Shown: in pieces, positions 25,884 through 63,000 of the stretch | Position numbering within the stretch: the stretch's first letter is position 1 | Layout: every line of letters begins with the position of its first letter | NCBI GenBank assembly: GCA_001724265.1 | Contig: MEDY01000108.1 | Location: forward strand, 1 to 64,000 | Source of the DNA: Rhizaria sp. SCN 62-66 | Lineage: Eukaryota | DNA: 64,000 nt | Reading direction: 5' to 3' | Translations under genes and position numbers: made by a program | The notes under the pieces: model-generated | Database searches by the model: none | What the model was told of the DNA's origin: nothing | The model's input: the letters and a program-made list of their open reading frames with translations, nothing else

Positions 25884-28800
25884 ATGGCCACGTGCGTTCA
25901 CGCGAACGAGGTCAACGCGCCCCGCGCCGACTCTCTCGTACATAAGGACGAATGCTGCCAGTGCTTCGTCACCCCCAAGACGGCGGGCACGAACGGCCTC
26001 GGCGTCTGCCTGACGTGCTTCACTGGCGGCTGCGCGGGTCCCCAGCCCTCAGCGGCCTCCGTCGCCGACGCCGCCGTTACCGCCAGCGCGGGCTACGCGA
26101 CGGGTCACGCCGCGCGGCACTTCGCGGTCACCAAGCACCATGTCTACCTCTTCCACAAGCAGACTCAGGACGACTCAGCTGCCGCCAACTCTGCGAATAC
26201 GGTCACAGAACTCGCGGCCCTCGCGTCCGCGGAGCCCCCCGTGGTGGACACATACACGGCGCACTGCTTCACATGTGCGCTTGATCTTTCGCTGGATGCG
26301 GCTGTGAACCCGAAGCTCGCTGCCGCTGCGAATGCCATTAAGTCAGCCACTCCCGCCTCGGCCCCCGCTCCCACCACGTACGTCGCTCCACTTATCAAAA
26401 CATCACATTTGACGACATATATCGATACATAGGCGTGCAAAACTAAACAAATATGTTTATATAGATGATGATTTTATTATGATGTTAATTTTGACTCAGT
26501 TAAAGCTTATCTTCACCGTTTTTTTCAAATGTATTTTTGTTTTTTCGCATCTACAGTGACTTCTTCGGCGGGTCTGCCGAGCCCCCCGCGGCACCCTGCG
26601 AGCACACCCTGCTGCTCCCGGCGCTGCAGCAGTCCCAGGGCACGCTGCCCGACCTGTCGAACGCCAAGCTTGCCAAGTGCACTGATTGCGACCTGTGTCA
26701 GAACCTGTGGCTGTGTCTGACGTGCGGCAACCTCGGCTGCTCCCGGTATGTTTTCTCAATATTAACAACAAAGATAGCATACGATGTTTTTAAATCTGCA
26801 CCCTAAGATGTTTTGATATTATTTGTACTGTTTTGTTTAGTTTTGCTTTGAAATACGGTTATCTCTGTGGTCTATGTGTCTCTTTTGTGGCTTTGCCAAG
26901 AAACTAAAGTAACTAAACGAGCACTTGAACAACCAAGATCTTCACCTATTAATCTAAAACTAAATCACAACACCACAGTTACCATCTAACACATGATACT
27001 AATATTCTATTCAAATTTACATTTATTTCGCTGCGTATATTCATATATAGCCGCGACTACGACGGCTCCGGCGGCAACAACCACGCTGTCGACCACGCCA
27101 AATCCACCGGCCACTGTCTCGTCCTCAAGGCCGGCACCCTGTCCCCCGAGGGCACCGGCGACATCTGGTGCTACGACTGCGACAGCGCCGTCAAGGATGA
27201 CCAGCTCGAGGCGACGCTTGCGGCCTTCGGGATTTTGCTGAGTCAGCAGTCCAAGACGAGCAAGTCCATGGCCGAGGTTGCGATGGAGCGCAACTTGACC
27301 GCAACCTTCCAGTCCGTCCACGACCCTACGGGCAAAGAGCTCTCGCTGCTGTTCGGACCCGCGCTCACGGGCGTCGTCAACATCGGCAACTCGTGCTACA
27401 TGTCCTCCGTCGTGCAAAGTCTCGCCGCGTGTGGCAGCGTGCGCGCCCGCTACGGCGGACTCGCGGGGCTGGAACACCTGACCACGTGTCGCAACCAGCG
27501 CCCCGGCGCCTGCTATCTCTGCCAGCTTGCCAAGGTGTTTGTCGGGCTCGGAAGCGGCGTGTTTGCGCTGCCGCCCACAAGTGAAGCCGCTGCGGCTTAC
27601 ATTAAGGCTCAGCGCGCTACCCGTGATAAGTCTATTCACTGCAAGAGCGATGCCAACGCTGACGCTGCAGCTGCTGCGAATGGTAACGCGAACGATGATA
27701 GCTTTGTGGTCAGTGAGCCTGCTGCTAAGGTCTCCCGCCTCGCCACCGACACCGATGACAACATCAGTAGCGATCCTAACACGAGCCTCACTGGCTCTAC
27801 CAACGCTCCTGCGGCTGCTGCTGCTGTAGCAAGCAGTCACCCGGTGGTTGTGCAGCCTGGCGTCTCGCTGCGCGCCCTCAAGAAACTCTTCAGCGCGGGC
27901 AACGGCGACTTCTCGGGCAACGCGCAGCAGTGTGCGTACGAGTATCTGTGCCACGTCAAGGACAACATCACGCGCAGCTAGACCGCGCTCAAGGACCGCG
28001 GGTCGAACCCCATAGAGAGCTTCCTTTTTGCGACGTCGTCGCGTCTGCAGTGCCGCCAGTGCCGCGGGGTGCGGTACACCACTAGCAAGGCCAGCGACAT
28101 CGTGCTGCCGCTAAGTCAAGCCGCCATCGACCGTGAGCAGCAGCAGCTGCAGAACAGCAAGGACGCTGCGACGGCGACCAGTGCCCCCTCCTTGGATGTG
28201 AGTTTCGAGGAGTGCATGGCGACTTACGCGGACACGCAGTCGGTCGAGGGTTTCAATTGCTCCAAGTGCCTCACCAAAACCACGTCGGATGTATGTACCG
28301 GTCTAAGTACCCTGCCCGAGACGCTGGTGGTGCAGGTGAAGCGGTTTGGTCTTTTCAACTCGCAGTCATGGGTTCCCACGAAACTCATGACGAACATCAC
28401 CTTCAACGGCTGTGGTGGTCACGGGAACGGTCAGATGATGACTGACACCGATGCAGCCGTGGCTGCGGGCGCGACGCGCGCGAGCGGACTGGTGGACTGC
28501 GAGGGCTTTGTTCCCCCCGTCATCGATTTGGCGGCTTACATTCAGAGCGGCATCAAGGACGGCGAGGAGCTCCTGCCCGAGAGCAACGATTGCGCCGCCA
28601 ATAGTAAGCAGGCGGGGGGCCTGGCGGCGAAGATGGCTGCGGTCAGCGCAGACACGGTCGAGATGATCTGCGGCTTTACTGGTACGTTCAGTTCCTCTTT
28701 AAGATACTACTTTTGAATGCATATATAAAAGTGTAGCCTGCCTTGCTTTCGTCTCCCATCCATTGCATCCCGATATATTTTTCATGATTCTCTTGTTTCT

Positions 28801-29324
28801 CTTGCGTTTTTCTGTGCGCACCCCTAGGCATGGACGGCGACCGCGTGCGGTATGCACTCGTGCAGTGCGACAACGACGCCGACCGCGCCGCCGAGTGGCT
28901 TTTCTCCCATATGGATGATGTGATCAGCTACGACGATGGCAACGACTCTGCCGCCACCGTCGCTGGTGCTGCTGCTGGCGGTCCAAGTGCCTCTGGGGGT
29001 GCGCTGGGGTCGACTAAGTACCGCCTGCGGTCATTCATCTGCCACGAGGGGCGCTCGACGCTCAGCGGCCACTACGTCTGCTACAAGACGGCCACGGCCA
29101 CCACAAACAGCTTCAGCACCAACGTCAACGCTAACAACGCTCAGGACGCGGCAAGCTACGGCACGTATGCACTGAATTCGCACGCGAGTGACGAGGCGAC
29201 GGGCGCCGTGGCCGTTCCTGACGGCACCAAGCTTGGCTGGGTCTGTTTCAACGACCAGAAGGTGTTTCAGGCGGCGACCGCGCCGGTCGGCCAGGCGTAC
29301 ATCTACTTCTTCGAGCGCGTGTAA
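25884..29324 (+). CDS. USP5: Ubiquitin-specific protease USP5/USP13/Ubp14 (isopeptidase T). Exons 25884-26377, 26557-26745, 27051-28681, 28828-29324; one in-frame TAG at 27979-27981
   Basis: N-terminal ZnF (HKDECCQCF), ZnF-UBP (NLWLCLTCGNLGCSR..GGNNHAVDH..DIWCYDCD), Cys box GVVNIGNSCYMSSVVQ, UBA (ALVQCDNDADRAAEWLFSHMDD), His box ICHEGRSTLSGHYVCY, WVCFNDQKV. Ends TAA. Confidence 0.93.
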
Positions 29325-29507
29325 AGAGGGAAGGATATATCGGCGGTGTGTCCGTCTGTGTTGATGAATTTGTGGTGGCAGCGGAGTTCCATTGTTTATG
29401 TACTTTCATATGTTATTATATTGTGAATACAGTTTATCTTGATGCTCGTTGTCTCACTTTGTATTCTTCCTTTCGCTCATGTGGTTGCTGACATCAGCTA
29501 CCTCTAA

Positions 29508-30043
29508 ATGTACGTTCAAGCTTTACGTTAATCGCGCTCCATATCGATGTCAGCGGAGCTTATCTTAACTCACTAGGTTGATTCTCTTTTTCATTGCCTT
29601 ATAGGGCTGCTGCGGCTGGCAAGGTGTCGTTCAAGATCATTCTTGCGTCTGACCCCAAGCTCCCTTACAAGATGTACGTTCTACTCAAATCTTTCGGGAC
29701 AATCATAATCTCGATTTAACCAAGTTTCCTGTAATATTCACACTTCCAAGTTTGCGGAGCATCTTCTCATGTACTTTTATTTCTATAAATTCTGATCTTT
29801 GTGCTCAAATTCTCTTGTTTGTTTACCACCTCGAACAGCGTGAGCGTGCCCGACCAGGCCCCCTTCGCGGCCGTCGTCAAGTTCGCCGCGCAGCAGTTCT
29901 CCGTTCCTTCCGACACGTCCGCGATCATCACTCCCGACGGCGTGGGCGTGAGCACGAACCAGACTGCGCAGGAGGTATTTATGTCTTATGGCAGCGAGCT
30001 ACGGCTCATTCCGCGTGACCGCGTCGGCTCCGATGAGATCTGA
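29508..30043 (+). CDS. UFM1: Ubiquitin-fold modifier 1. Exons 29508-29509, 29605-29673, 29839-30043
   Basis: Spliced product [73 protein letters not shown]. Ends TGA. Confidence 0.96.
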
Positions 30044-30389
30044 ATCCACTACTTTTCTGAACAAAGAAGCACCTGTGTGTGATAGAAACGTCGAAATATA
30101 GTCTTGCAAGTGTGGTTACATGTTTTGATTTGATCTTGTATCATTCGAGTCAATTTTTATCCGCTCTAGTGTTTCAACTCAGACATCTAAACGTGGGCTT
30201 TAACGGCCAACATACGTGTTCTCTAGAATAAAACCCTTGTTTATTATCTGTTTTAAGTATTAATTATCGTATATATCAGTCTAAATATCGTTATTGTTCA
30301 TCTTCCATCTTTAACCGAAAAGACTCACAAATTTCATTGTGAAGTTGGGACTTAGCCACAATCAAGAATACGTTGCTGCAGCGAAATGC

Positions 30390-33300
30390 TCACTTGCCAT
30401 GCTTAAGCGCAGTCATCCGCTCCAGATTGCGCACGAGCGCGTCTAGATAGACTTCCTCCGCGGCCGCAGCAGTGCGCGACAGGAGAGGATCGCTCTCCTC
30501 GGCGAGAAGTAAAGCCGCCTCGTAGTCTGAGTACTCCCTTACATTTGCGGCGGCGCTACTCCCCGCAGCAGCAGCGTGGAGCTCTTGACTCGCGTTCTGT
30601 TGGGCGCGTGCGATGGGGTACTTAGACGGCGATGTAAGGTGCTGCTGGTTATGCGTACTTACGAACCTAGCGTTCCCATGACTGTGGCCGTGGCCGTGGC
30701 CGTGGCCGTCTTTGTTCGGTGTCAGGGTGACTGTGAGGCCCTTGGACGCGTAAGAACCAGCGTTACCATTTAGACGCGCGGCGCTAGCGTGGTTATGATG
30801 GTCATCGTTCACATCTAAGGGGTCGTTATAGTCGTCGATGTAAGTACTGAACGACTCGCGGCGCGCACGGTGCCCCTTAGATCCGATGATGCCGCCTTCG
30901 CTCGCACTTGCGCGGGGCTTGACACTTACATTCGCGGCAGTATTGACACCACGCTTAACCGTGTTGGTGGCGTTGACACGAGCAGCATTACCACTTACAT
31001 TCCTCGCAGCAGCAGTACTTGCATGAGCACTGCTAGGACGAGCGCTGACCGACTTGCTGCGACTGCTGTTGTTATCGATGTTAGTATTGTTGTAAGTGTT
31101 GCTGTGCGTGTTGATGCGGGCAGTGCTGGGCCCGGTGACGCCCTTAGGGACTGCAGCTGCGCCCTGAGACGGCTGCTGCTGCTGTCGTTGTTGCTGAGTA
31201 ACAACAACAGAAGATAAAGCCGGGACTACAAGTTTGCGGGACACACCACGAGCACTCGCACTAGCATTAGCATGAGCATTAGTATGAGCGTTATTACCGC
31301 GACCACTTGCCCCACGACTGTTCGCAGTCGTGCGAGAATGAGCGTTGGCGTTGTTGTTGGGAATGAGGCCGTACATATCGCTCTCCGCCTTGATAGCCCG
31401 CTGCAACAGCACTGCTAAAGCCTTGAACGCGCTCTCACCGTCGCCGCCGCCACTTACACTGCGTTGAGGCGTACTTACACCCTTCGCTGTCTTCACAGCG
31501 CCAGACGCAGCCGAGGTACCGACACCAGGCTTATTCTGTGATGTTTGCTGCGGCTGAGGGGCGCTTAGATTGCCTTCCCAGCGTGACAGCCGGCTCGCAA
31601 GCTTCTGCTTGAGGGTACTGAGCGCGACGGACCGCGGCGGCATCGGTGTGAGGGTCCTCTCCTGCTCGCGGTCACTGCCTTCACGATACCACAACAGTCC
31701 GAACAACTCGTCCGGCACAATGCTGTCGCGCACTTCAGTGAAGTTGTAGCCGACGCGCCGGATGCGGCCTGAGTTCTTGAGGTGCGCGAGCGACTCTAAA
31801 GTTAAGCCGTCCTTGCACAGGAGGTCGAGAACGGGCATGAGTAGGCCGCCACCGCGCGGGCCGTACGGAGGGGCGGAAGTTAAGCCGCACTGATCTTCCA
31901 GTAAACGCGTATTACCCGCGCTGGAACTGAGGCTAGAGCGACCGAGACCACAACGCGAGCTTGACACAGTGAAAGCAGAGCCAGAACTGGAGCCAGTGTT
32001 AGATCCAGAGCTAAAACCGTGATTGTTGTTGCTGTTAGAAGCGTATTGGCGGCAGCAGCAGAGAGAAAGCAAAGAAAGACGTGCCTTCTCGCGGCGTTGG
32101 TGCATCACGATGTGGTGGAGCACCTTAGCCCGCCTAAGTACCTCCTTGTCCTCGGCCTTGTGTCTAAGTACCCGCGCGCGGCGGGTAAGTAAGCGGCGCA
32201 TGCGGGGACACTTACACTCCTCGGGGTAAGTGTCTGCAGAGTCTGTGTCAGCATGTGAACCATGTGTTCCTTTGTTATAACTGTTATAAGCGAGGGAACA
32301 AATGAGTGTGAGGTCCTTGCTGTCAGCCGGAATACCTTCTAACGCACACTGCTCACAGTCACCTGTCGCAGCCTGCTCGTGGGCAGCATGCTCACAGCCA
32401 CTGATGTCGACGGCGTCGTCACAGTCGTCGTTGTCGCTGTAAATGTCGTCGGCATCGTCGTCGTCGTCGTCGTCGTCTTCATCGTCACTCTGGTAGCTGA
32501 CACAGTCATACTCAGAATCACCAAAAAGGACTGAGAAAACGCTCCTAGTGTACGCATTCTTGCTCTTTTTAGCGTTGTTGCGACTGTCTACAGCAGCGAC
32601 CTGTGACTGAGCCGTGCGTAGATGTGAGAACGGACATTCGTCGAAGTGCGGCCTATGTAAAAGCGCCTGCTCAAGCTGGCCCCAAACAACGTTGTCACTC
32701 ACAATACTCGCAGTGTTGTTCGTGCTAGCAGCAATGTGAGTCATGCTCTGGCCGTCGATGCTTTCATTGGAGCTGCTAGGAAGTGAAAGAGCGGCAGCTT
32801 CAGCCTCAGTGATGCCGTAAACGACAAAACCGTCTCTTTCGTGAGCGTAATCATCCGCGTTTTTGTTCTGGAAATAGCTTCGAGACGCGATCAACCGGCG
32901 GGACTTCGTCAGCATTCGCTTCATTTGACCGTGGTCACTGCTCCACACATGCAGCAGCCCCCCTCCACTTACAGCGGAGGCGCTTACACCAGCACCAGCT
33001 CCCGCGCCAGTTCCAGGTTTAGCCGCCCCATAGGTACTTAGACTCGACGGCGACGCGTACAGTGCGAGGATCTTTGTCGCGCGCAGCGGCGCAAAGGGGT
33101 CAAGCTCACTCAGCAAACTGTCAGTGTAAGTGGCCAAGGTGCCGGCCACGGCCCCAGGCACGTCGTCAAGCTTCAGTGAGAGTAAGGTAGTGTTTGCGGA
33201 GAGCAACGTGACTGCCGCGTCAACGGCGGCCGCGTCTGCGCCGTTGTTGCGGATGTCAAGCGCCAACAACCACTGGTCGGCAGTGAGAGTGGTGAGCAAG

Positions 33301-35951
33301 TTGGCCAACCCGGCGTCTCCGAGTGCGTTGTGCGATAAATCCAGCGAAAGCAGGCCTTGCGATGACAACACACGAGTCAGCGCCGCGTCAGCTTGCTCGG
33401 AAGCGCTCTTCTGCTGCTGCTGAGCTGCGCTGCCGCTCGCGCCGCTACCCTTAGGCGGCGAGGAAGTCGTAAGAACCCCCTTAGAGGAAGTCGTAAGGAC
33501 CCCCTTAGAATTGCGCAGCGAAGCCCTCCAGCGGTACTCCTCCCTACGCTGCGCCTGTGCCTCGAGGAAGCGGCTTAACATAAAGACGCACTGGGGGCCC
33601 AGGTTGCACTCACTAAAGGCCACATGGTTGACTGAGAGAGTCGCAAGCGCGTCCAGCAGCAACTGCAGCGTGGCCAAAGTTAGGCCGCCGCAGCGGCGGA
33701 GGTAAAAGACCCTGAGGTTGACGGTGTGCTTGAGGTACTTAGCTAGGGAGGTCCACGCCGCGGTTGTAAGGGTCACGGAGCGAAGCTCTAAGTGGCGCAG
33801 TGTAAGGGGGTGCGTGCCGAGCACACGTGGGACTAAGTGGCAGACGGCGACGGAGCGCTCACGGTCACTTAGATCGTCGGGACTGCCGCCTTTAGTCAGG
33901 GAAGTGCTGAGATTACCGGCAGGCTTATTCTGACTAGCGCTGTTGTTGTTGTAGCTCTCGTTGTTGTTGCCGCCAGTGAGCGCGGGATCCAAGGGGCTGG
34001 CGGTACTTAGACGAAAAACAGTGAGTCCAGGCAGCTTAAGCGCGGCAAGAGTCAGCACTTCAAGCATAGGGCGGCTTAACTTTGACACATCCGCAATCCA
34101 CTGGTGGTGCGACAGGTACCGGAAAAAGACCGTGTTGCGAATCTTGGTGTACAGCCTGTGCTGCGCGATGCCTGCGTCAGTCAAAGCTGAGAGGAAGTTA
34201 AGCCGCGGCTTGAGATCGGAACGCGTGCGGGACGAGTCACCGGTGACTGCAGAGGTACTCAGCCTGCTGTTGTTGTTGCTTTTGTTTGTGATGTTATTTT
34301 TAGACGGGGGCGTGGTGTTAGTGAGCTCAGCATATGCCTTGAGGATCAAAGCACGTGTTTTGTCATCGTTGACTGAAACGCCACCAGTCGCACTGCCGCT
34401 GTTGGTAAATAGCAAAGCGTCTAGAACAGCCTTGATGTCGTTGTTTGCCTTGCTAGCGCCAGTGCTATTGTTGTTGGCAGTACTGACATCGGAGAGTGAC
34501 GTGATCGGCTTGGGAGGGTAGAAAGTGGGTGTAAGTACGCCGGACGCGGCCTGACTTTTGCTAGACTTGATGCCGGAAGCTTGGCTTCCACCAGTGCGAG
34601 CCTTTTCACGGGCAATAATGGCAGCAGTAGCGGCCTTAGCATCGGCCTTGGCCTTGGCCTCAGCAGCCTCAGCCTCAGCCTGTAGTCGAGACAAACACAA
34701 AATGACAAATTTGGCAAAGAATGCAAATGTACAGATGAGCTGGGTTTTAAAAACACCATAAAAACAGCCAATAATCCAATAAATATTTAGTTTTACACTA
34801 AAAATAGTGAAAAAGGAACATGAATATTGTTAAAATGCACTTTACTAGTTACAACATACTTCTCCGGGCCTCATCGTGAGGGCCGTTTTGATCACAAGCG
34901 GCCTCGCTTGGACCGGCCGCTCCTGGCCCACAATGCCGCAGCCGGGGTTGTTGTAGCTGGACCCACCGGCACTTGCGCTACTGGTGTTGTTGTTGTAGTA
35001 CGCGGCAAATGTGCTGGGACCGAACGCGTTGTGAAACGCGATATCCTCAGCGGTAGTTCCGAAAAACTCCCCTGCGCCCGCCTGCTCGCAGTCGCCGTGC
35101 GCTGTATACAGCCGCATCTGGTGGTCAATCGTAGCCATGGCGGTGATCGCGGCTAGCCGCCGCTGCTGGCGTTGTTTGCGGCGCTGCTCGCGCTGTTTAA
35201 CCCGTAAATGCAGCTGCGAGTAGTCGATGTGGTACTTAGACAGCACGCGCGCCGCGTGCGCCTGCTCGCGGGTAAGGACCCCGGCGCCGTCGGAAGTTAG
35301 GCCGCCGTCACCTCCGCCCTTAGAGATGCTGGCAGAGGGCAGGGGCAGGTGGAGCAGCTTGGCGAGAGAGTCTAAGCACCACTCAGAGCTCCCCGCCTCT
35401 TCATTATGACTGCTATTACTGTCGCCGTCAGCGGCGTTGTCGCCGGTGAGGCTGCTGGTAGCGCGGTTCTTGTTGGCTGCAGCAGTAGCAGCGCTGATGT
35501 TTGAGGTGGATTTGGTCTTGTTGTTGTGGTTGAGCAAGTGTGAGGCTTGAGTGAGATCACGGGTCAGACCTTCGTCCTCAGTCTCGTCTCCATTGCCCTG
35601 CCCATTCCCGCCACCGGCAGCAGTCGACGCGTTGTTGTCGCTGCAAACGGCGGCAGCAAAGGGCGACACCTGCTGCGCGTACGCCGGCGGAGCGCAGTAG
35701 GGCGCTGTGGGGCCGTAGATGGCCGTGGCAGCGGCGGCGCCAGTGTTCCACACAGCCCTGGCCACAGCGTTCACAGTCGGGGGCTTGTGCTCGGTCTGTT
35801 TCGCGGGGTAGTCGCCGCTGGGCACAAACGGGGTGTCGGCCGCGGTGGAAAAAAGCCCCGGGGTAGTAGCAAAGGTCGCGCGGGACCCAGGGTGCGGCGC
35901 GGGGGGCTGCGAGTGCCAGGCGGCGAGCGCGGGCGGTGGGAGCGAGGTCAT
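30390..35951 (-). CDS. CEP78: CEP78-like centriolar LRR protein. Exons ~35951-34860 and 34679-30390; true start uncertain
   Basis: LRR block VAFSECNLG..QAQRREEYRWRASLR..GLLSLDLSHNALGDAG..ADQWLLALDIRNNG..NTTLLSL matches the remembered CEP78 signature (RRHEETWAESLR..EDLWLRALDL..NTTL). Ends TGA. Confidence 0.75.
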
Positions 35952-36322: not shown

Positions 36323-39300
36323 TTAATGCCGCGCATGCGGAGGAAGAGGAGGCAGCGGTATCGTAGGCCGTTTAAGCACAGACACTGGTTGTGAGCCCTG
36401 CTGCGGTGAGACTGGACGTGAACCAAGTGCCTTAGTGTCAGGCGTTTGTGAGCTCCTGCTCGTGAATCCATGAGCTTGCTGCCGCGACAGCCGCGGCTGA
36501 TGCGACTGCTGCGGCTGACCTGACTGCTGTTGCTGTTGTAGTTTCGAGACTTCATGATGCTGATGCTGCTGCAACTGCTGCTGCTAATCGTACGTGCTAC
36601 AATTGCGCTGAGCTTGCTGCTTTAGCAAGATTGAAGATGATGTTAACACCTTGCTGCAGTGTGAGATCGCATCGTTCGACTGTGAAAGCGGAATCAAAGA
36701 CGATGATGACTGTAGCGATGCGCAAAATTGCGAATCAACGTTAGCCGCGTTGTGAATAACTGTGCTACTCACACCAGTGCTCAAATTATTGTTGTTTGCG
36801 TCTAAATTGATGCTATCAGTGCTTTGTGTAGCGTTGGTGCGTGTGTGGGCGCTCTGGGGAATGATCGGCAGCAAGTATGAGTCGAAAGGCAGCGTCTCGT
36901 TGCAATCAAACGTGGCACTGTTTAGTTGTGCACTTGCATCGTCAAAATGCACGCATTTATCCTTCGCGGCACCACTGTTAGTTGCCGAGCTAACGTGGTT
37001 GTTGTTATTGCTGACGTTAGTGTGGTTATGATCAGTAGTTGCAATGATTTTCTGGCCGTTAGCAGTGCTACAATGTGCTTTGCTGTGAGCTGCGTTGTCG
37101 TCGCCGCTCGCAATGTCATTAACAATGTTTTCGCTGTCTTCGTCGTCGCCACTAAAGTTAGCATCATCGCTATTGCAATCGCTCCCGTTTTCACCGACGC
37201 TGCTCTCATCATCACAGGCGCTGTCAACGCCATCATCATGAGCAACCGTGTGGGTGATTTTGTTGTCGTTTCTGCTAACTCTAGTCGTATCACTCGCGGC
37301 TTTGTTCTCAGGAGCAGTTGTACTGGCTGCGAAGTAGTTGCTGCAAATGATGTGACTATAATGCTGGACAGAGTCAACGCTGGCTGTGCTCGAATCGCAC
37401 TGCATACCTGGGGCAAGTTGATTGTTAACGCTATTGCTTGCCTTTAAGACGCTATCTGTGATAAGGTCGAAACTCAAACTCGAATCACTAATTTCTCTCG
37501 TATCAAACGTGCTACGAGTTACTGCGTTCGCCGCAACTAAAGTCGGAAACAATTTGCTCGCTTGCTGTTGTTGCTGCTGCTGTTGCATATGCTCTTGTTG
37601 TTGATGCAGTTGCTGACACCTATGTTTCTGCTCACAGTCACGTTGCTGCTGCTGTGTATCCTCAAGTTGCCGCTGCAACTTTGGCTGCTATCCTGATTGT
37701 GATCGCAAGTTTGCTTGTGCATGCATGTACGCGTGCGACTTTGAGTTACAGGCAGGCGGTTTCACAACTTGTTGGTACTTGGACTCCGTCACACGATCGA
37801 ACACCGAACTTTCGCAAGCACTGGCATCGGGTTTTGTGATATTACTCTTTGTCTCTCTCTCTTTCACTGACGACAACGCTACTGCTACTTGTGTTGATGT
37901 AGCTGGCGCTGTGGCTGTTGCTGTTGCTGTAGCTGTTGATGCAACTGATGCAAGAGGCTTAGACGTGCGAAGCTCACTGGCGCCTGTAAGCCCCACCTTA
38001 GCCAGCAACGGTGTCGCTACCTTAAGCTGATATGTAAGTATCTCTTGCATTAAATCAGGCCGCCCCCTTAGCCTCTCTTGTGCCCTCGCCCACAGCTACG
38101 GCACTGCCCGCAACGCTTTTTTGATGTCAAGCCGCTTCTGCGGCAGCTTCTCGAGCATGCCACTAACAACGCCCCTGAGTCGCTCTGAGTACCCTGGATG
38201 TAAAGGTCGCGGCTTGCCTTTGATTATCTTGATTGCAAGCGCAGGCAGCGATGCGGCACGGAAAGGGCGCTTTAACTGCAAGATCTCGTATGCAATTACG
38301 CCCAGTGCCCAAACGTCTGATGGGAAAGAGTATGGCTGCCCCTTGATGACCTCTGGCGACAAGTAGTACGGAGTGCCAATGCGAGTCAGGGCCAGTGCGG
38401 CTGTCGCTGCGAGCGGGCGAGATACGCCGAAATCACCGATCAACAAAGTCAAGCCGCTCTGCGATATGACGGAGTCACCCTGCTGCAAAACTGAGTCGCC
38501 ATCGGGAGCGGCTGTATCTGGACTCTTGTGACAGGAGCACGTGCAGCCGTTGCTGTTGTTGTCGTTACGTGTGTCACTGTTAGCGCTCTTGTTGTGCTCA
38601 CACTGTGGAACCTTTGCAACGTCCTCCGTCTCAATCGTGATTTTAGCGGCATTGGCAATGCTGTTATTGTCACTATGATCATAGCTTGCAAGAGTCTCTG
38701 GACGGATAGGGTTTGGGGTTAGAGTTTCGTTCGAAGTTAGATGCGGCAAGTGTACCACCGACGAAAAAACAGCTTGCCTGTGGTCAGCAGAAACGCTGCT
38801 GCTGTGAGTGGCTTGACTTTGAGGTAGATCGTAGTAACTCGGACCAGCGGTTGCATCGAACGTGTCCGCGACAGAAGTGTGTGAGTTATTATGTTGACCG
38901 ATGTTAATGCTGCTTGTATCGGCAGTGCTGGTGGCTGGCGGCAGCGACCACTGCTTGCGTCGACGAACAGTCAACTGCGGTGCCGGCGACTGTGATTGCA
39001 ATTGGGACTGCAACTGCTGGTGTGACTGCGGAAGCGTTGGCAACGGTGACATTAATGGCAGTGCATGCGATGACAATGATGGCGCTGCAAGCTTAGGTGC
39101 TGTTGTTGAAGCTGCCGCTGCTGTTGGCGCTGCTCCAAGCTCTATCTGATCAACACTTGTGCGTTGTGGTTGCGGCAGCTGCTGCTGCTTTTGCTTTGTG
39201 CAGCCACACTTGGAGCAACTTACAGCGACTAACTGCACATCGTTGGGTGGCTGTGACTGGGACTGCAACTTAGACACGCAATCAGCACCCGCCAGGCTGG

Positions 39301-40765
39301 AGCTGCTGCGGCTGCATGCGGCTGCATTACCGGTTGCGTGAGCTAGCATATTGTTGTGCAAGAAGACATTGCTTGTCTTCAAGTCACGGTGCAAGATCTT
39401 GCGGTTGTGAATGTGGACAACACCGAGCATTAACTGGCAGATAATATCCCAGCAAACAGTCTCCGGAAAGTAGTAGCCCGGTAAGACCGCAGCAGTGTGC
39501 CGCTCTGTGTTTGCAACCGTGTTATTAGAGCAGTTAGAGCTATTTCCGTCGATGTTGAATGTTGGCAGCCCACTTGCGCTCACGCTTGCACTGGCCGTCG
39601 CACTTTCAAGGACGTCTTTTCTGCAGCTGAGCCGCTCATCGCTTGTCTCCCGCTGCTGCTTTGTCTTGGCCGCTTGCGCCTTAGCTAGCTTCCTTCTCTC
39701 AACTTGTTGTGCAATCATTGAAGTTAAGTCGCCACCGTTACAGTACTGCATCACAATGGCTAATGCTCCCTCGACTGTAATGAAGCTGTCTAAGTAGCCC
39801 ACAACATTTGGGTGTCCCCTGATAGCGGCGGCATTTCCACCCGCTGTTGGTGTACTGTTAGTTGTGTGGAAGCTACCGGATCTCTTGTTGCTGCACGCAA
39901 CGAATGATGATACTTCGCGCAAAATCGCGATAAAGTCACTGTTCAACTCGTCTTCGTCTTCGTAACGTGCGCGCTCACTCTCAACGTAGCAAGCGTGGCT
40001 AATGGCTCCATCGGTGTTGTTGTCTATGCTATTACCATTCGCGCTTGGGTTCGGAGGAGAATTAACATGTGATGCCTTTTCAGCGCAGCGAGTCAGCATG
40101 TCTTCCTGTACTAGCGCTCCTCCGCCTTTTGTTGGCATATATGCGCCCTTCGTTTTGTACGGCACTTGGATTAGCTTTATCACGACTAATCCATCGTTGG
40201 CGTCGCCCGCAGCATCGTGACTGTGAGCACGCTGCTGCGGCGGACCGTGCTCATGCAGCGCAGCATTATTTGAGGCTGCAGAGTCCTTGGAAGACTCTGC
40301 ATCTTTCCACTTGCTCTGGTAGGGCTTGCTACTAACACCACTTAGATCAGATGTCGTTACACTTGAGTCAGAGGTACTGAGGTTTCTCTCGAGGGAGATG
40401 CCTGTGATGGTGCTGCCAGGTCCAATCAGCATACCAGAGCTGAAGCTAAGCCACTGCTGCGCTTGCTGCAGCTGCTTGTAGTGTTGCTGTTGTTGCTGTG
40501 AGTGGGAAAGCAATTGCGCAGGTGCAGCAGAATCAGCGCGAGTTGGAGTCGCTCCAGTAAAGGTTGCATGGGCCGCAATTGCAGCGATCTCTGCAGCGCT
40601 CTTATCGCTGCTCGGTGCATTCGTTGAAAACGGTGGCAGCGTTAACGGGGGTGTAATATAGTTTTGTAAAGGTGTTGGCGACTCAAGAGGGAATGGACGG
40701 CATAGAACTGCGCATCCGTACGACCCTTTGCCTATCACGCGAAGCGCCACGTAGCGGTGCAACAT
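36323..40765 (-). CDS. NEK/NIMA-family Ser/Thr kinase, a single exon of about 1480 aa if the three in-frame TAGs (38096-98, 37688-90, 36584-86) are read as sense
   Basis: IGKGSYG, VIK, HPNVVGYLDSF, IVMQYCNGGDL, HRDLKTSNVFL, IGDFGVSR, IGTPYYLSPE, SDVWALG. Four consecutive ORF-track segments share one frame and are separated only by TAG. Final stop is TAA. Confidence 0.88.
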
Positions 40766-41410
40766 TGCGACGCCCTCCTCACAACTACCTCGAGAGATGA
40801 TTATGTTTAGGTTTCAGTATTGATAGACTTGTTTGAATAGGTCTTTTAGTGGGCTGACCATGGAAGTTTGAAATAATGGAGATATAGCGTATTTTGTGAG
40901 AAATGAGTGCCACGTCGACAGTCCCCGTGAACCCGCTTACAAAATCAAATTAACGCAGCGCTAAACAGATGATCATAAAATAAGCTTGCATTTTTTAGAT
41001 GTTGGCCATTTTTTTAAATACTGATGATATTGTTTTGTTCCTAAAATCAACGTGATAGCTGATACATAGATGTAAATCGATGTTCAAGTCAGCCTCCCTG
41101 AGTGGCCAATGAGTGACTGTGGGCACTCTGACTGCCTGGCCAAGAGTCGGGAGCACTCATGATGTAGGAAATTACTTGGATTGCGTCTTCTTTTGCGGGG
41201 AATGATCTGTTGATTGCATATTTATTTATTCGGACATACCTCGCTTTCTCTCGTTGACTCAATTTCTTCCTGCACTGAAGATTGAATTCCTTGCAAGCAA
41301 GGCCGCTCCAACTCACCGACCTTGGCCCTCTCGTTCCGCTTTTTTTGCCTTCCCTCTTTCGCTCGTGCGCAAATTCTTCTTGCGGTCATATAAACTCAAA
41401 CGTTGAGCAG

Positions 41411-44808: not shown

Positions 44809-44840
<32 letters not shown>

Positions 44841-45978: not shown

Positions 45979-47317
45979 ATGTTCCCTCTCACTCTTGCTT
46001 TGCTCTCCCGGATAAATGACGACTCCAGTCGGCCAAAATAGGCGACAAGCACGTGCACCTCTGCTAACACCAACTCTAAAGTCACCCCCTGCCATGTCGA
46101 CCTACCTTAGAGGCTTAACTTCGATAAAGTCAAGTCGCGCCGTCATGGTTTGGCGCGTGTCTCTGGGCTTGGCAACTCGTTTCTGATCCTCGATGTAAGT
46201 GCGAAGGAGTGTAAGTGTGTCTGCACGTGTACGGGTAAGGGACTTCGCAGTGGCTCTGACCTCAAGTGCACGTGCGAGTGTGAGTGTGGCTACGTGCCTT
46301 TGCCACGCTTGTACTCACTCGCAACACGCTCGAACAATTGCAAAAACAACAGCAACGGCACGAGCACTTCTGATGCAACAGCTGGGATCTCCTCTAGTGA
46401 CAACTCGAACCCTTTGCCATTGTTCCCCCCTCTCAGCACTGCTTACATCTCTGAACTGTGCTTAAGTGCCGGGACTGATGGCTTCATTGCCATCATGCCA
46501 GAGACTCTGCTCACAGTGAATTGCAATAGCAGCACCATCAATAACAATAATAACACCAAGAACAGCAACAGCACCAGCACCAGCACCGGCATTGCTGACA
46601 GCACTTACACTGCTTCTCCAAGCCACAGTGCTCCGATGGATCTAAGTACCCCTGCCTCGGACACTTACATCTTCCGTCTGTGCAACAACGATGGCTCTGA
46701 CGCTGAGATGTGTGGCAACGCGGTGCGCTGTGCAGCCGCCTACTTAGCTAGTTTAAGGGGATTGTCGTCGACGGCATCTTCACAGCAGCAGCAGCAGCAG
46801 TCTGCGCAAAACGCCCCCTGGCCTTGGCGGCTTGACTTTGATACCGCCGCAGGTGTCAAGCAGTGCCTCATCAAGAAGCCGCCACTGTCGTTTTTGTCGT
46901 CCTCCCATAATACGGAGACGGGGGACGTGGAGTGGGAAGTGGCTGTGGGCATGGGCAAGCCGTCTCTGTCATCGTCTCAGTACCCTCTTAGCGCAGGACC
47001 TTCTCCGGTGACATTGAGGTATTACACACCTCTTAGCCCAACACACCTCCTTACAATGCCGTCTAAGGGCGTTGATCAATGTGACCCTCAGCGCGTTCCT
47101 GTTATCGCCACTGCAGTCCTACCTCTACCTCTTACTGTCTGCCCCTTAGGCAAAGCCGGCACGCCGGTCCCTCCGCCGCCGCTGCCCCCTTATCTGTCTA
47201 AGTTCCCCTTTTCAGACGCGCCGCAGTTCGAGAGCGTAGGTATGTTCTTCAAGGCGTGTATTGTCGACACAGGTGTGCCCCACTGTGTGATCTTCTTTCC
47301 CCCCGCCTTCAAGAACC

Positions 47318-47349
<32 letters not shown>

Positions 47350-48072
47350 TTGAAGAGTGATAAAACGTATGTGAACGAAGACGGCTCGACTTCTGGTGTA
47401 AGTACCTCTAGAGGCGACCCTTACACCGATTTCCCGCCGCACTGCAACGCGTTCTATTACAATACGGACGTCAACGCCAACTGCGGTAACTCTGCTGCTG
47501 TGACACCGCTGACTTGGGATGAGGCAACAAACCCTTACATTTTTCCTGCACTGACCTCCCGTCTAAGTGCCCACCCGTATTTCCCTCGCGGCTGCAACAT
47601 CGAGTTCGCACGCCTCCAGCTTACACCTCCATCGCCAACTGTGAGCGATGGAAGGGTGTACTTAGACGTGGAGATCCAGTCCAAGGTTTGGGAACGCGGC
47701 TGTGGTGAAACGCAGGCCTGTGGCACTGGCGGCTGCGCTGTGGCCATCGCGGCGGCGCTAAACTCACTTCTTACCGCTCCAAACAACAACAACAACAACA
47801 ACAACAGCAGCAGCAGTAGTAACGACAGCATTTTAAGCACGAACGTTTTTTCTCCAGTCTATCACGTCAAGTTCCCTGGCGGCAGTATGTCCGTCAACTG
47901 GCCTCTGTCTGCGACAGCGACATTGACGCCCATCAACAGCAGCAGCAACAACAACACGGCAGACATAGAGGTGCCGACTGCGGCTGAGTTGCAGTTGGTG
48001 CCGGATATGATCAAGACAGGGCCGGCGGTGATCCACAACAGCTTGACGGTTTGGGCCGATATGCCATTTTAA
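45979..48072 (+). CDS. dapF: Diaminopimelate epimerase with large low-complexity insertions; the only upstream in-frame ATG (45979) is reached through two TAGs (46039-41, 46108-10)
   Basis: SGLGNSF, NNDGSDAEMCGNAVRC, VDTGVPHCV, FPRGCNIEF, VWERGCGETQACGTG, FPGG, TGPA. Both catalytic Cys are present. Ends TAA. Confidence 0.9.
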
Positions 48073-56377: not shown

Positions 56378-59300
56378 TTGTAATCAAACCAAACAAACAC
56401 GAACGAGAAATAAAAGCAATTTAAAGAGAGAAACGCAATTAAGGGAGAGAAAAAACAATTAATGGGAGTAATAACATAAAAGGCAGCAGAGGAGATGCAA
56501 AGAAAGGGGAAAAGCATTGGGAGCAATACAAAATGGGGAGAAAAGCACAGGGAGAAGAAGAAGAAAGACAAAAAGCGCAGTTGTTAAATGTGAGAGTAAA
56601 TGTTTGTTTGTTGTTTTTCGAGATAAGCACGCATCCATTGACATAAAGCCATGTAAAGTTATACATCGTGTGCAACAGATTGAGATGATTTTAGAGCAGC
56701 AGATGCTGATATAACAAACACACAACTCAAAGTGTCAATTACGCTGCTCGATAGTAGTTGCAATTAGTCACCAAATATAAACGAAACGAAATAAACACGG
56801 ATCAAAGTTCTCAGCTGAACCAGTATAAACAAAGCAAACACTGTCACTCACCAAGTTTGATTAACGTAAACAAAGCTAAACAAAACCGCAACGCTAAATA
56901 AAGCGAAGCTAAGCAAAGCTAAGAGAAGTTCCGATATTCAAAGAGAGCTCGTATACTATGACATCTCTCTCTGAAGTATTAATAGTGCAGGAATGGCAGA
57001 CGTACCTAGACTGGAGGGATCAGACGCAGTTGCGATAAAGCGGTGAATCAACGGATGTGACGCCACCCAAAGCCCCCTCTGCTGCCCATGGTCATTCTTC
57101 AGCTGCTCACGGTCACTCTGCTCACCACTGCGAGGATGATTGTGCACATCGAAGGGGCGGCTTACTTTACTGTCAGAAAGCCAGAGGTTATCAGCAGCAC
57201 CATCAATCGCCACTGTAGCCACCGCTTTCGTCCCCACCTTGTACTCATAATACCTCACCTGCTTATTCTTATTCTTCTTCTTACCGACAGCGTCGTCCGC
57301 AGTCGCCGTGTAAGTGTCCTCAGTGTGAGTGTCATTGGTGTAAGGGTGCGCAGTGCAAGTGTAAGGGTATGCGGCTAAACTTCGGTCCTGCGTGGAAGCC
57401 ACCCAGATTCGTTTCGCTGCCTTATCAATAATGACGCCATTGGGCTGAGACAGGCCCTCCACCACTAATGAGCACTCAGTACCCATGAGTGCGTTCTCCT
57501 TTTTGTTGTTGTTCTTGTTGTTATTGCGGTTACTCGTGGGTGTAGCACCCGTGAGTGAACAGAGGGCAAGGGAGCCCCAACGACGAAATGAAGCCATTTC
57601 GAACAGAGTGCCAGGGCCGTCTGCGGCAGGGGTGTTTAAGAAGTTACTATTGATGTTGTTGTTGTTGTTGTTGTTGTTGTTGAGAAAGAGGAAAAGAAGG
57701 AAACAGCGAGAGATAAAAGAATCAACAGTAAAAAGACGTGAGAGTGAGTGGGTCAAGTTAGAGGTGGTAAGATTGCGCACGTGCTCATAGCTGCACACAT
57801 GCTTACGAGTTGTTTCGATGTACAAGAGCGTCATATCCACAGAAAAATAAATCGACTTATATCAACAAAACACGTGGAGTACATCGAATCATGCGTTTCT
57901 TGTGATATCACACTACAAAGCAAACATGTTTAAAGCAAACACGTATGCATTCATCAAGCCAATCACATCAAAGCACTCACATCCAAAGCATTGACTCCGT
58001 AGCGTCTTATCAAAACATGTGTAAAAGAATTGCCTCCGTAGCATCACTTCAAAGCGTGTGAGAAACATTGACTCTGTCACAGTCGCAGTGACAGCTTCGT
58101 CAAAGCATAACCAACAACTTGCAAAGCACAAGAGTATCTTATACAGGCGGCAACCAAAGCTTCTTGTTTTCTCCGACCGATACTTTTGAATAATTAAAGA
58201 GTCAAAACAGCACACTTATAACAACAAATAATTAGCATATATAACATCAATAATGAAGCAAGCGTGGTAATATGTGAGTAACTAAGCAAACGTACGTCGC
58301 CACAAAGGTATCCCTATCGAGAAATGCAACCCCGTTAAGATTCCTCAGTTGTTTGGGATGTGATTGGGCATCTGCCACTGCAACTAGCCTCAAAGCCAGA
58401 GATGGTAAAAGATCGGTTACGTTTGCACGTAGTTGGCTCACAGTTACAACACTCTCACTCTCATCGAAGCGATGACTACCATCACCGTCGCTTTTGTTGT
58501 CACCGTCGCTGTTGCTGTTGCTGTTGTTGTTGTTGGTCTCGTTGTCCCTGTTGCTTGTCGTAGGAGTGGGAGTAATTGAAATGAGGTCAAAAACGGCCAC
58601 TGCAGGCCCTTTCCGAGCCACCAAAACCACAGCAACTCGAATGCCCCCCGCCTCCTTATTATGACTCCTTGTAGTTTCACCACCATTATCACCATCACTA
58701 TTGTCGTTGCCGTCATCTTGTGATGACGGTGTTGATGATGTTGACGTTGATTCATCAGTTACTGAGAGTGTGAAACCTAAGGGTTGAAAGTCAGGCCGCG
58801 TTTCAAAGTCCCAACCCCTTAGAGGCAGTGCTCGAAACAAGCCGCCCCCCTTAGATACATCACCCTTAAACTCATTCGACGCGCCCTACTTAGACGCATC
58901 CCCCTTAGACGCAGCCAACGCGTTTGCAGCGAGCTTGTTGGCAGCTTCAATAGCAACATCGTTTGCAATTGCGACTAAAACTGCCCCTTGGTATTGTTGT
59001 TTCCCTAACATCGCCAGCCTTCCGGCCGAGGTGGAGAGATCAAGCCCTTCCCCCGCCCCCGCCATAGTAGGATCCCCTGCCTCCCTCATAGTCGCGGTGG
59101 CAACCGATTGGTCGCCGAAAGCGCGGCGATAGGGGGCGGAGGCGGCGAACAGCAGAGGACCAGCTAAGCGTAAATCCTCAGCTGCACGCATGAGGGGCGA
59201 AGAGGCGTCGATAGCGACACAGGAGGACGCTGATGATGCCGATGCTGGTGCAAGGGCGCTGTCGATATAGGGCCGGAGAGCGACAGAGAGGAGGCAAAGT

Positions 59301-60027: not shown

Positions 60028-63000
60028 ATGCGTCCCTCAGGCTCAGGCTCAGGCTCTGTCAGTGGCAGCGGTGGCAGTGGCATTCCTATTGCTCCCCCTC
60101 CTACTCCTCTCCCGTACGCTCTATCACTTTTTAACAACATTTATACCAACTTACACCATTATTTTGTGTTATCTCCTGATCATTTGGCTTAGCCACAACG
60201 TATTATCTCTTTGAAACCCTGTTTCGTCAACCACAATCATCCCTCATCGTTTTCGTTTCTCCTATCTTTACTCTTTGATACCTTCCTCCCTTTTAGCCCC
60301 GCTGCATTGCTCTCCAAGCTCCGCGCAATTCCGGCCGTTTCGCAAGCGTCCCTTACCCCTCAAGCCGTTACCGACCTCAAATGGGGGTTTGTCGAGCCTA
60401 CCTTAGCTGCTTTAGCAAGGGCTTCTGGATCAACAGCTATTGATGATCTAGTTGAATCACGTCGTAAAGAAAGGGCGTTTGAACGGGCATCTCCTCTGGG
60501 ACCGAACAAAGCGCGCGAGGCGGCGTATCAGGTACGCGTACTTCCATGTATACTAATTAGATTCGCACTGTTACTGCACTTACATTCAAACACTCGCTTG
60601 AGATTGAGAAGTCTTGATCTGATTTGCAGATGTGATGCTTGTAGACTATACTTTGCTTTGGCTTGATGAGTCGCTACGATATTCGCTATATATATGAGTT
60701 ATTTACTCACAAAATGCAGTTTTCCTTCAAGATTGATTCATATTCGCTCACATCTTTGCTGTTTCATTCTTGCTTCTCTTGTTTGGTTCATGTTGTTCAC
60801 GACTACCATTTACCTTGCGTTTACATATTGCATATATCTGTCGACACTTTGTGCTGTCACTCTATCTTTTCGCTTTGTATATGTGTCTTAGGCGGCTTGT
60901 CTTAAAACAGCGGCTAATATTGCATCTGTTTCCTTACCCGCCCCCTCACAGTCACAAGCTGTTATAAGCCGCCTTTCTCAAAACTCTCATAACTCTCAAA
61001 ACTCAGCCTCTAATGCTGCTGCTGCTGCTGCTGGTTTGACTGGTGACAAAGGGGGGGTTTCAGTTTCAGTTGTTGCTGTTGAGAAAGTGACTGTAGCATC
61101 GGTTTTGACTGCTTTGGCCGCAAAGGCGGCTTATGTTTCGACAGCGACTGAGAGTATGCCTGGCCAGGGCGTTTCCACCAAACAACAACAACAACAACAA
61201 CAACGCTTGCAACAACAACAACAACAACAACAGCAACAGCAACATCAGCAGCAGCAACAGTCTCAAATGCAGTCACAACTGAAATCTCCACCTCAACCTC
61301 AGCCTCAGCCTCAGCAGCAGCCTCAGCAGCAGCCTCAGCAGCAGCAACAGCAACAGCAACAGATTACAGAGTTGCAGCAGCGTTTGTCGCAATTGCAAGC
61401 TATGGTTGCTCACCAACATCAACCTCAGTCTTTACAACAACAACAACAACTACAACAACAACAGCAGCAGCAATTACAACAGCATCAGCATTTGCAGCAG
61501 CAGCAACAGCAACAACAAAGGGGTATGATTGCAACACCTAGCCGTTTTTCAGCAAGGCCACAGTCACCTATCATCACCCCTGCCTTTGCCGCTGCCCCTT
61601 TTGCCACATCTGACCCTCATGCAGAGTCTATTTCTCATCAATCTCAGTCTGCGAATGCGCAGGGGCGGGGGCCTGGTGCCAGAGTAGAGAGACGGGGGCC
61701 TGCGGGTTTAACAACGGCACAGCTGCAGCGGCCACAATCAGGTCGTGGCCTAGTAAATACTGTTAACAATAATAACACTATCAACAACATCAACAATATC
61801 AGTCCTAGTAACGCTACGAATAACAGCATTGTCAATCCTAGGAGTACGAATCACAATAGTATCGTTTACTCTGATTCTTCGAATGCCGGCTCTGCGAGTG
61901 CTGCTTTCACTGCTAATGCCAACGCTGTTTCTTCCTCCTCCAACGCGACTGCAACTGGGGCTGCCACGGTGACTGATGTTTTCAGCACAGGCCTCGGCCG
62001 CCGCCGACCTGCCCCCGCTACTATGGCGGGGGCGGGGGGCGCTATGGCGGGAGCGGGGGGGTCGTCGTCATCGTCGATGTTGTTGGAGAAGGGAAAAGTA
62101 GGGGCTACGCTGGCAGCTTTGGCTGGAGGGCCTGATGTTGACGATGATGACAACGGTCACGCTGCGCAAAAACAGCAACAACAACAAAAACAGCAGCAGC
62201 AGCAACAACAACAACAGCAGTTTCAACAATAGCAGCAGCAGCGGCGGCCTCAGCAGCCTCGATGGCATCATCCTGATGACGACCACGACGACGATAATGA
62301 TGGCCGCTTTAACGCCGATAACGATGACGTCAACGGTCGTTTCCGTTACCACAGCGCCACTGAGCCCGAGCCGGAGCCAGAGGCTGAGGCTGAGTTTGAG
62401 AATGGAGCTGTGACGGAGGCTGGAGCAGGAGCTGCTTTGAGTAATCACAATTCCCGTGTCAATACTAAAAAAACACCCCTTCCTGGCTCTAGCTCAAACT
62501 CAAAATCTAAACCCAGCAGCAGCAGCAGTAGCGGCGGCGGCGGCGGCAGCGGCGGCGGCGACAAAGGGGGTGATGCTGGTAGTAATAACGGTAGTTTGAT
62601 GGCTACTTTACGCCGGGCTCAGGCCCGAGCTTCAGCTGAATCCTCTCGGGCTGAGAAGGCTGAACGCATTGCCGCCGCCGCACAACGGGAGATAGCTTTA
62701 TTACGACAACAGCTCGAAAGGTCCGAGGCTGCTTCCGCCGCCGCTGCCGCCGCCGCCGAACTTGTTGCTGAAACGGCTGAGGCTGCTGAAGCCGAGGCTG
62801 CTGAGGCGACGAAAGCAGCAACTGCAGTCGCGGCGGCGTCAGCGGGGGCGGGGGCGACTCATGCAGCCTCTCTCTCTCACGCTGCTGCCGTTGGCTATAA
62901 CAATAATAATAACTCTAGCAATGGCACTGCTACTGGGAGTGGTTCTACTGCGTCTGGCTATGATCGTGGCAGCCCTCTCCCTATGCCTCCGCGCAATCGT

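Follow-up and report, generated by a model that had tools for sequence, protein, structure and literature searches.

UAA and UAG nearly always change their meaning together. The question raised by the DNA analysed here, positions 1 to 64,000 of contig MEDY01000108.1 (assembly GCA_001724265.1, deposited as Rhizaria sp. SCN 62-66; these 64,000 nucleotides are referred to as the window), is whether the two codons have been separated in this organism, such that UAG is translated and UAA and UGA terminate translation. This reading was put forward by an initial annotation and is well supported: UAG is very probably a sense codon and UAA and UGA are the stops. It is carried by a spliced complementary DNA (cDNA) contig that retains TAG at position 27979, by the occurrence in frame of eight TAG and no TAA or TGA codons, and by 13 gene ends that include no TAG. 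With hardly less confidence, the best explanation is that UAG is translated, most likely as glutamine (Gln), and that UAA, as the main stop, and UGA end all genes.

The initial annotation listed eight in-frame TAG codons in five genes and neither an internal TAA or TGA nor a frameshift in these genes. All eight codons were recovered at their positions (Table 1), the five open reading frames (ORFs) being otherwise open with TAG translated, and no such lesion was found, the frame being kept at every TAG. The gene names USP5, NEK and DapF were substantiated by Pfam matches, and NEK and DapF in addition by solved structures, whereas the label 'paraoxonase-like' (PON-like) goes back to a weak Arylesterase match of the following exon only (E 0.0054, below the Pfam cut-off); neither a Pfam nor a PDB match was obtained for the TAG-bearing exon of that gene, and the polyQ gene matched no Pfam family. 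In the USP5 gene the Cys box (GNSCY) precedes the TAG, and the UBA domain and the His box (GHYVCY...FNDQKV) follow it in frame across a splice junction, so that an active enzyme requires translation through the UAG. The NEK-like kinase, which among solved structures is closest to NEK1, NEK2 and NEK7, carries three TAG codons, all in one frame. Diaminopimelate epimerases account for 16 of the 17 PDB matches of DapF, and the sole in-frame ATG ahead of its domain (45979) is located upstream of both DapF TAG codons. The TAG of the polyQ gene is flanked by 446 and 589 open codons. A database protein of the NEK gene (P0134, 889 residues) stops exactly at the first TAG, residues 1-126 of the query corresponding to its last 126. 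Accordingly, gene callers applying the standard code truncate proteins of this organism at TAG, which is a practical consequence for its annotation.

Table 1. Coordinates of in-frame TAG codons, the genes carrying them, gene ends, splice sites and tRNA genes in the window.
Feature	Position	Strand	Remarks
USP5/UBP14-like gene, TAG	27979..27981	+	codon 343 of ORF 26953-28716; between Cys box and His box
USP5 exon with zf-UBP end, UCH Cys box and TAG	27051..28681	+	acceptor tatatag/ at 27050; Pfam UCH and zf-UBP
USP5 spliceosomal intron, GTACGT...CCTAG	28682..28827	+	146 nt, phase 1; joint in X5
USP5 last exon with UBA domain and His box	28828..29324	+	TAA at 29322-29324; C-terminus ...YIYFFERV aligns with homologue ends
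NEK-like kinase ORF	36323..40813	-	1496 codons without TAA/TGA, ends in TAA; Pfam Pkinase
NEK TAG right after kinase domain (AVP-TAG-LW)	38096..38098	-	codon 906
NEK TAG in Gln-rich tail (SG-TAG-QPKLQ)	37688..37690	-	codon 1042
NEK TAG in Gln-rich tail (YD-TAG-QQQLQQ)	36584..36586	-	codon 1410; 86 codons before TAA
DapF TAG in N-terminal extension	46039..46041	+	codon 48 of ORF 45898-48072
DapF TAG two codons before first strand (LNFDKV...GLGNSF)	46108..46110	+	codon 71 of ORF 45898-48072
Diaminopimelate epimerase-like gene (DapF)	45979..48072	+	only usable ATG to TAA; Pfam DAP_epimerase
PON-like gene, TAG in first long exon	58886..58888	-	codon 173 of ORF 59404-58247; flanked by 172 and 212 open codons
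polyQ gene, TAG (CAA CAA TAG CAG CAG CAG)	62230..62232	+	codon 521 of ORF 60670-63999
True stops (examples)	1645, 9135, 16279, 19749, 45199, 50707, 55974		and six others
Splice donors	28682, 26378 (+); 11227, 11604, 20487, 20870, 23713, 57005, 58295 (-)		
Splice acceptors	27050, 28827 (+); 11059, 20346, 20683 (-)		
tRNA genes			Ser-AGA, Ala-CGC (two), Ala-AGC (two), Lys-CTT, Gly-GCC, Arg-TCT with intron

The letters of the window were compared with four public runs over the region 27000-46999, which contains six of the eight TAG codons; all runs were compared as assembled contigs, not as reads. Record 18 of run X5, read as a cDNA library, aligns with 27816-28680 and resumes gaplessly at 28827-29392, skipping 146 nucleotides with GT..AG ends. 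It leaves TAG 27979 unchanged, differs from the window at the single letter 28285 and extends beyond the TAA of USP5. The joint of 28680 to 28827 was seen in X5 only, the DNA contigs of runs X2 and X4 retaining the intron, and the splice sequence G/GTACGT...CCTAG/G fixes the intron as given in Table 1. Since this spliced cDNA contig keeps the TAG, editing, an intron and an assembly error are excluded at the USP5 site. In the same run, the alignment of record 17 begins exactly at the acceptor 27050 and leaves 750 further letters off the window, which fits splicing onto upstream exons, and record 21 spans the NEK TAG 37688 (37317-37829, without a differing letter) and thus probably provides RNA support there. 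Parts of the window without RNA cover are uninformative either way.

The DNA contigs of X2 and X4, which belong to two other studies, span all six TAG codons of the compared region, and none of the nine rows in its table of differing letters falls on a TAG. Furthermore, a metagenome contig (L001) is identical across 4467 bases that include both DapF TAG codons. No other letter was thus present at the six sites and the spliced USP5 contig is unedited, which speaks against the possibility, raised together with the original proposal, that CAG stands at these positions. The in-frame UAG is accordingly documented by spliced cDNA in USP5 and by DNA and ORFs at the other seven sites. Translation through TAG is regarded as proven at USP5 27979, the support is strong at NEK 38096, NEK 37688 and polyQ 62230, good at PON-like 58886 and moderate at NEK 36584 and both DapF codons.

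To compare TAG with the other stops, all standard-code stops flanked by long open stretches were counted in the window. Where each flank had to be open for at least 100 codons, 8 of 1170 TAG, 2 of 1618 TAA and 3 of 2164 TGA codons were obtained; with at least 150, the numbers were three, zero and zero. The 8 TAG codons at the lower threshold comprise five of the sites in Table 1, two that are antisense to genes and one that is intronic, and each of the five TAA and TGA codons is off-frame, antisense or within an intron. In a coding set of 20 hand-trimmed segments with 11,271 codons, TAG is present eight times in frame and TAA and TGA are absent, the other two frames of the same segments containing 189 TAG, 342 TAA and 442 TGA. 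Since TAA and TGA served to delimit the ORFs, their absence in frame is to some extent a product of the procedure; the uninterrupted NEK frame constitutes non-circular evidence. Under random nonsense mutation the TAG share of single-step paths is 0.53, which gives a probability of about 0.006 that all eight codons are TAG. The frequency of UAG is about 0.07% of codons, corresponding to 1.4% of Gln codons if it specifies Gln, and its positions are weakly constrained.

With exons chained, 13 gene ends could be fixed, 10 with TAA, three with TGA and none with TAG. The absence of TAG agrees with the initial annotation, which gave a count of 14 ends (10 TAA and four TGA). In the PMI gene no stop codon of whatever type comes between the conserved end and the TAA, which lies 20-29 residues past the homologue ends. 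UAA is clearly a stop, and the common code in which both UAR codons, UAA and UAG, specify Gln and UGA alone terminates (NCBI table 6 type, as in Amoeboaphelidium, hexamitins and many ciliates) is therefore excluded: TAA is the commonest terminator (10/13) and never occurs in frame. A code of the Condylostoma or Blastocrithidia kind, in which a codon is stop or sense depending on its context, finds no match in the 0/13 TAG ends, a small sample in which rare use as a stop would be possible. The true stops precede G in 10 of 13 cases and GT in seven (TAAGT or TGAGT), and the sense TAG codons precede G in two and C in four of eight cases. The strong stop context TAAGT/TGAGT resembles a canonical 5' splice site.

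Since an acceptor may itself supply a TAG, the intron structure of the window bears directly on the in-frame codons. The donors are mostly G/GTACG(T/A), with a few GTATGT, and the acceptors consist of a pyrimidine run followed by TAG/G. This 5' splice consensus is unusual in not being GTAAGT, which suggests a matching change in the U1 snRNA. In line with the earlier statement that no intron covers the TAG codons, the typical anatomy G/GTACG...TAG/G was present at none of the eight sites, with caveats at NEK 36584 and DapF 46108 that are taken up below. Other TAG codons were rejected as sense codons. TAG 11059 (-) is the acceptor of a kinesin intron, as it falls into a gap in 26 of 42 tblastn high-scoring segment pairs and the resulting junction ...SNNE/DVYQRT... 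fits kinesin-13; a GTACG or GTATG donor is located just upstream of each of the TAG codons 14817, 34845 and 56956 (-); TAG 60889 (+) is located within an AT-rich leader; and the codons at 21148 and 13236 fall on the strand opposite to genes. As four of these in-frame codons (11059, 14817, 34845 and 56956) are intronic or part of an acceptor, counts based on ORFs can yield inflated TAG numbers for this genome.

With respect to the amino acid specified by UAG, only two TAG codons, USP5 27979 and NEK 38096, stand in alignable columns. In eight homologues the USP5 column contains E, Y, Q, H, E, N and two gaps and is thus polar and variable; E is found in P0006, the nearest relative and one with the same exon borders. 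The NEK column was evaluated in 138 segments from 150 matches, the window's own protein and matches ending before the column having been dropped. It is hydrophobic (F31 V22 I21 L17 A11 Y7 P6 S5 W4 C3 G2 M2; H, E, T, Q, R and K once each; one gap), follows a Pro that is conserved in 91 of the 138 segments, and the closest homologues read LPVV, LPMV, YPIM and IPVV at this place. The profile emissions of these two columns alone lean slightly towards small or hydrophobic residues, with 0.15 for A, 0.13 for L and 0.12 for V and a lower value for Q. The neighbouring codons were examined as a further indication. A Gln codon adjoins three of the eight TAG codons (0.375), the fraction being 0.389 for CAG (n=386), 0.512 for CAA (n=162), 0.157 for TTG, 0.097 for CTG and 0.08-0.11 for GAG, AAG, TAC, TGG and TCG. 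The probability of at least three Gln neighbours in eight would be 0.12 for a TTG-like codon, 0.035 for a CTG-like codon and 0.02-0.05 for codons like GAG, AAG, TAC, TGG or TCG. The neighbour likelihood places Q 10^1.4 above P, the next residue, and 10^1.9 above L, and the score of S is -0.70 as compared with +2.21 for Q. Context and both columns combined yield a rough posterior of 0.92 for Q and 0.04 for L, which leans on the context term and was discounted because a change of CAG to TAG within CAG runs might be tolerable whatever UAG encodes. In our estimate Gln is the favoured assignment by a modest margin over even chances, leucine (Leu) is a minor possibility and any other residue a marginally smaller one. 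The wording 'most likely Gln' in the initial annotation is favoured by the neighbour context, TAG resembling CAG and CAA in this respect, and the conserved NEK column, with Q in 1 of 138 homologues, speaks against it.

If UAG is a sense codon for Leu or another hydrophobic residue, read by a CUA tRNA derived from tRNA-Leu, the composition of the NEK column and the residues of its closest homologues would be accounted for, the hidden Markov model emission at this column being 0.138 for L and 0.019 for Q. Moreover, TTG is also found beside Gln runs and a TTG-like codon is not rejected by the neighbour count, and UAG=Leu has precedents in exLh and in some phyllopharyngean ciliates (PMC5304391, PMC11687900). 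This assignment is nevertheless unlikely, as it draws on a single column in which some homologues also have A, P, S, K, E or R, the USP5 column is polar with emissions of 0.037 for L and 0.084 for Q, and both the neighbour context and the combined posterior prefer Q. Less probable still is a UAG that formally remains a stop and is leaky or dual, a near-cognate tRNA such as tRNA-Gln (CUG) reading it often enough for function, in the manner of programmed read-through or of context-dependent codes. Such leakiness would suit the rarity of UAG in frame (8 of 11,271 codons) and its confinement to weakly constrained positions, the missing tRNA(CUA) described below and the letters after the codons: C after a stop codon is the weakest termination context, and C follows half of the sense TAG codons, as opposed to the G after most real stops. 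Against it speak the 0/13 gene ends with TAG, the three TAG codons of NEK, over which low read-through would compound, and the placement of the USP5 TAG, which is midway through the catalytic domain and not close to the C-terminus as in classical read-through. Very improbable, finally, are TAG codons that remain untranslated, whether as parts of introns that escaped recognition, as lesions of pseudogenes, as errors of assembly or as RNA-edited sites. Introns in the window often end with TAG/G and the four rejected codons are indeed intronic or acceptors, but the spliced cDNA retains TAG 27979 unedited, the letters are identical in contigs from at least three studies, the flanks of the TAG codons are GC-rich and coding-like as compared with the T-rich introns, the frame is kept and the same genes are free of other lesions, and the eight-of-eight probability given above is low.

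A number of observations weigh against a translated UAG or against its assignment to Gln. The proof from RNA concerns one site, USP5 27979, and run X5 is automatically labelled 'probably DNA', so that its reading as cDNA rests on the splice joint; the pieces of run X9 (polyA RNA) are unspliced at the USP5 intron, and among those listed none spans a TAG. Contigs drop rare variants. Neither of the DapF codons nor NEK 36584 has RNA cover, and splice-like motifs are located nearby. GTACGA directly precedes NEK TAG 36584, where an intron would be possible; the sequence downstream is CAG-rich, has a GC content of 57% and stays open up to the TAA, unlike the T-rich introns. A pyrimidine-rich, acceptor-like run precedes DapF TAG 46108, ahead of which no donor was seen. 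The 13 gene ends are a small sample: if TAG made up 25% of stops, the probability of 0/13 would be about 0.02. As regards Gln, no TAG occupies the position of a conserved Gln, the NEK column is hydrophobic, the two alignable columns alone score L over Q by about 3:1, and the case is built on low-complexity context. Moreover, no eRF1 gene is located within the 64-kb window, and no tRNA with anticodon CUA is among its eight tRNA genes according to Rfam and ARAGORN.

By analogy with the systems described in PMC5304391 and PMC11687900, a dedicated tRNA with anticodon CUA would read UAG, not UAA, and would probably have arisen from tRNA-Gln (CUG) through a single anticodon change. An eRF1 with an N-domain that binds UAG poorly would act alongside this tRNA; for eRF1, the changes T32G in Iotanema and L69A in exLh (human Leu69) have been reported (PMC5304391). 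The initial annotation had likewise noted no CUA-anticodon tRNA in the window, and a relaxed ARAGORN run also gave no CTA anticodon. The tRNA at 53579-53710 (+) has a CTA in its loop region and was rejected as a suppressor, since Rfam and ARAGORN fold it as tRNA-Arg (UCU) with a 59-nucleotide intron after position 37; it was missed by ARAGORN in default mode and found with introns allowed. The remaining tRNA genes include a cluster at 4281-4634 (-) and 7203-7404 (-) that encodes Ala (CGC), Ala (AGC) and Lys (CTT). A second copy of the pair Ala (CGC) and Ala (AGC) lies at a distance of about 2.9 kb in this cluster and has the same Rfam scores as the first, pointing to a recent tandem duplication.

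The window represents a nuclear-type eukaryotic contig with a GC content of 52% (47-59% by 4-kb windows), spliceosomal introns, eight tRNA genes and about 15 protein genes, whose products are rich in poly-Q, poly-N and poly-A tracts. Public runs that contain it are labelled as bioreactor, wastewater, activated-sludge or fuel-cell metagenomes, and at least 0.92 of its sampled words are present in each of four public runs. The sequences nearest to the kinesin-13 motor are environmental (69-74% identity), and its named matches (57-63%) are scattered among a cryptophyte, chytrids, plants, animals and a ciliate. The nearest sequences show 34% identity for USP5, with fungi and a plant as named matches, and 41% for PMI, whose 78 named matches by hand count comprise 70 fungi, seven animals and one plant record. 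This fungal excess probably reflects the make-up of the databases. In a PMI tree without a true outgroup, the window clusters solely with five environmental sequences (SH-like approximate likelihood ratio test, SH-aLRT, 98), and neither the fungal (95) nor the animal (95) clade among the sampled sequences includes this group; a kinship with fungi was dropped on account of this grouping. The plant record, labelled as the fern Adiantum, nests within basidiomycete fungi beside an environmental sequence and is probably a fungal contamination of a public plant assembly. Nothing in the sequence of the window points to a ciliate origin, the GC content of 52%, the 146-nucleotide intron and the 64-kb contig with many genes being unlike ciliates. 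A metagenome scan with PMI returned solely the same sequence (L001, 100%), prokaryote genome contigs scanned with the kinesin motor gave no match, and a protein atlas search with the same motor gave no taxonomic lead.

Two further genes deserve mention. DapF, here present in a eukaryote, is extended at the N-terminus and contains poly-Asn runs as well as a Cys-rich insert (especially 46196-46330); the insert is encoded by GT-rich TGTAAGTG-like repeats that also fill the spacer 45470-45680, and it may be an in-frame intron beginning with GTAAGT. The EF-hand ORF at 19749-23399 (-) runs on through two GTACGT introns, its next exon encoding a second EF-hand-like stretch and its last exon, which ends with the TAA at 19749, a hydrophobic, membrane-like segment without a family. 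This region appears to be one multi-exon gene.

Codes that separate UAA from UAG show that the eukaryotic termination machinery can distinguish both codons. Three features of a UAG-only code are found here, namely in-frame UAG in an mRNA (USP5), no UAG at gene ends and the retention of UAA and UGA as stops, and the organism represents an additional lineage in this known rare class. As it is apparently unrelated to the other members it would add an independent origin of the UAG-only code, which is plausible. Whether an unplaced, uncultured lineage that recurs in wastewater, bioreactor and fuel-cell samples has captured UAG alone, independently of ciliates, fornicates, sainouroid rhizarians and green algae, and is still at an early stage of this process, is in our judgement evenly balanced; the early stage is suggested by the use of UAG for about 1% of the codons of its amino acid and at unconstrained positions only. 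If this is true, the order of stop-codon capture, tRNA first or eRF1 first, would be readable from the genome and its environmental relatives. The very low usage of UAG and the presence of the organism in many public metagenomes allow the onset of capture to be tested through a comparison of the tRNA set and eRF1 between this organism and relatives.

According to two reports (PMC5304391; PMC11687900), UAG alone has been reassigned in exLh (Leu), Iotanema (Gln), Scotinosphaera (Ser), Protocruzia and in three phyllopharyngean events (Leu, Gln and Gln), so that exLh, Iotanema and Scotinosphaera are the cases given there outside ciliates. The list of known cases in the initial annotation was incomplete in this respect, as Scotinosphaera (UAG=Ser), Protocruzia tuzeti and the phyllopharyngean ciliates were missing (PMC11687900). 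The literature searched, supplements being outside the search, contained no report of a UAG-only code in a eukaryote from wastewater or bioreactors.

Among these systems, the fornicate Iotanema spirale uses UAG for Gln and retains UAA and UGA as stops, with 104 and 15 gene ends, respectively; UAG makes up about 8% of its Gln codons, and the Gln assignment was derived from hundreds of conserved columns (PMC5304391). The organism studied here shares with it the sense function of UAG alone, the predominance of UAA as stop (10 and three ends here) and the minority status of UAG, which would amount to about 1.4% of Gln codons if it is Gln. It differs in the two, disagreeing columns available for the assignment and, as compared with a gut flagellate, in its GC content of 52%, introns of at least 146 nucleotides and wastewater or bioreactor source. 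In the rhizarian exLh (Sainouroidea), UAG specifies Leu, 56 genes end with UAA and 15 with UGA, and 384 UAG codons were present in 71 genes (PMC5304391). This is likewise a non-ciliate protist known solely from sequence data in which only UAG is reassigned and genes end with UAA and UGA, and the hydrophobic NEK column would suit Leu as in exLh. However, UAG is frequent and placed at conserved Leu positions in exLh, whereas it is rare here and adjoins Gln codons in 3/8 cases.

The phyllopharyngean ciliates and Protocruzia tuzeti use UAG for Leu or Gln and UAA as the preferred stop, and suppressor tRNA(CUA) genes, the mechanism also proposed here, were present in two of the three genomes with UAG=Leu (PMC11687900). 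Hartmannula and Trochilia belong with Iotanema and Protocruzia to the UAG=Gln variant, and the TARA phyllopharyngeans with exLh to the UAG=Leu variant. As in the present case, UAG is decoupled from UAA and the code was found by metagenome mining; the window, by contrast, lacks ciliate traits, and the named best matches of three of its proteins are mostly fungi, animals and plants. The aphelid Amoeboaphelidium protococcarum, in which UAG and UAA both specify Gln (as cited in PMC6299283 and PMC5304391), is a non-ciliate algal parasite of ponds and reactors with a comparable stop-to-Gln type of change. Unlike this species with both UAR codons as sense codons, TAA ends 10 of 13 genes here and is never in frame. 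The green alga Scotinosphaera resembles the present case in a reassignment of UAG only and outside ciliates (PMC11687900), and differs from it in the amino acid, Ser being disfavoured here by the neighbour score.

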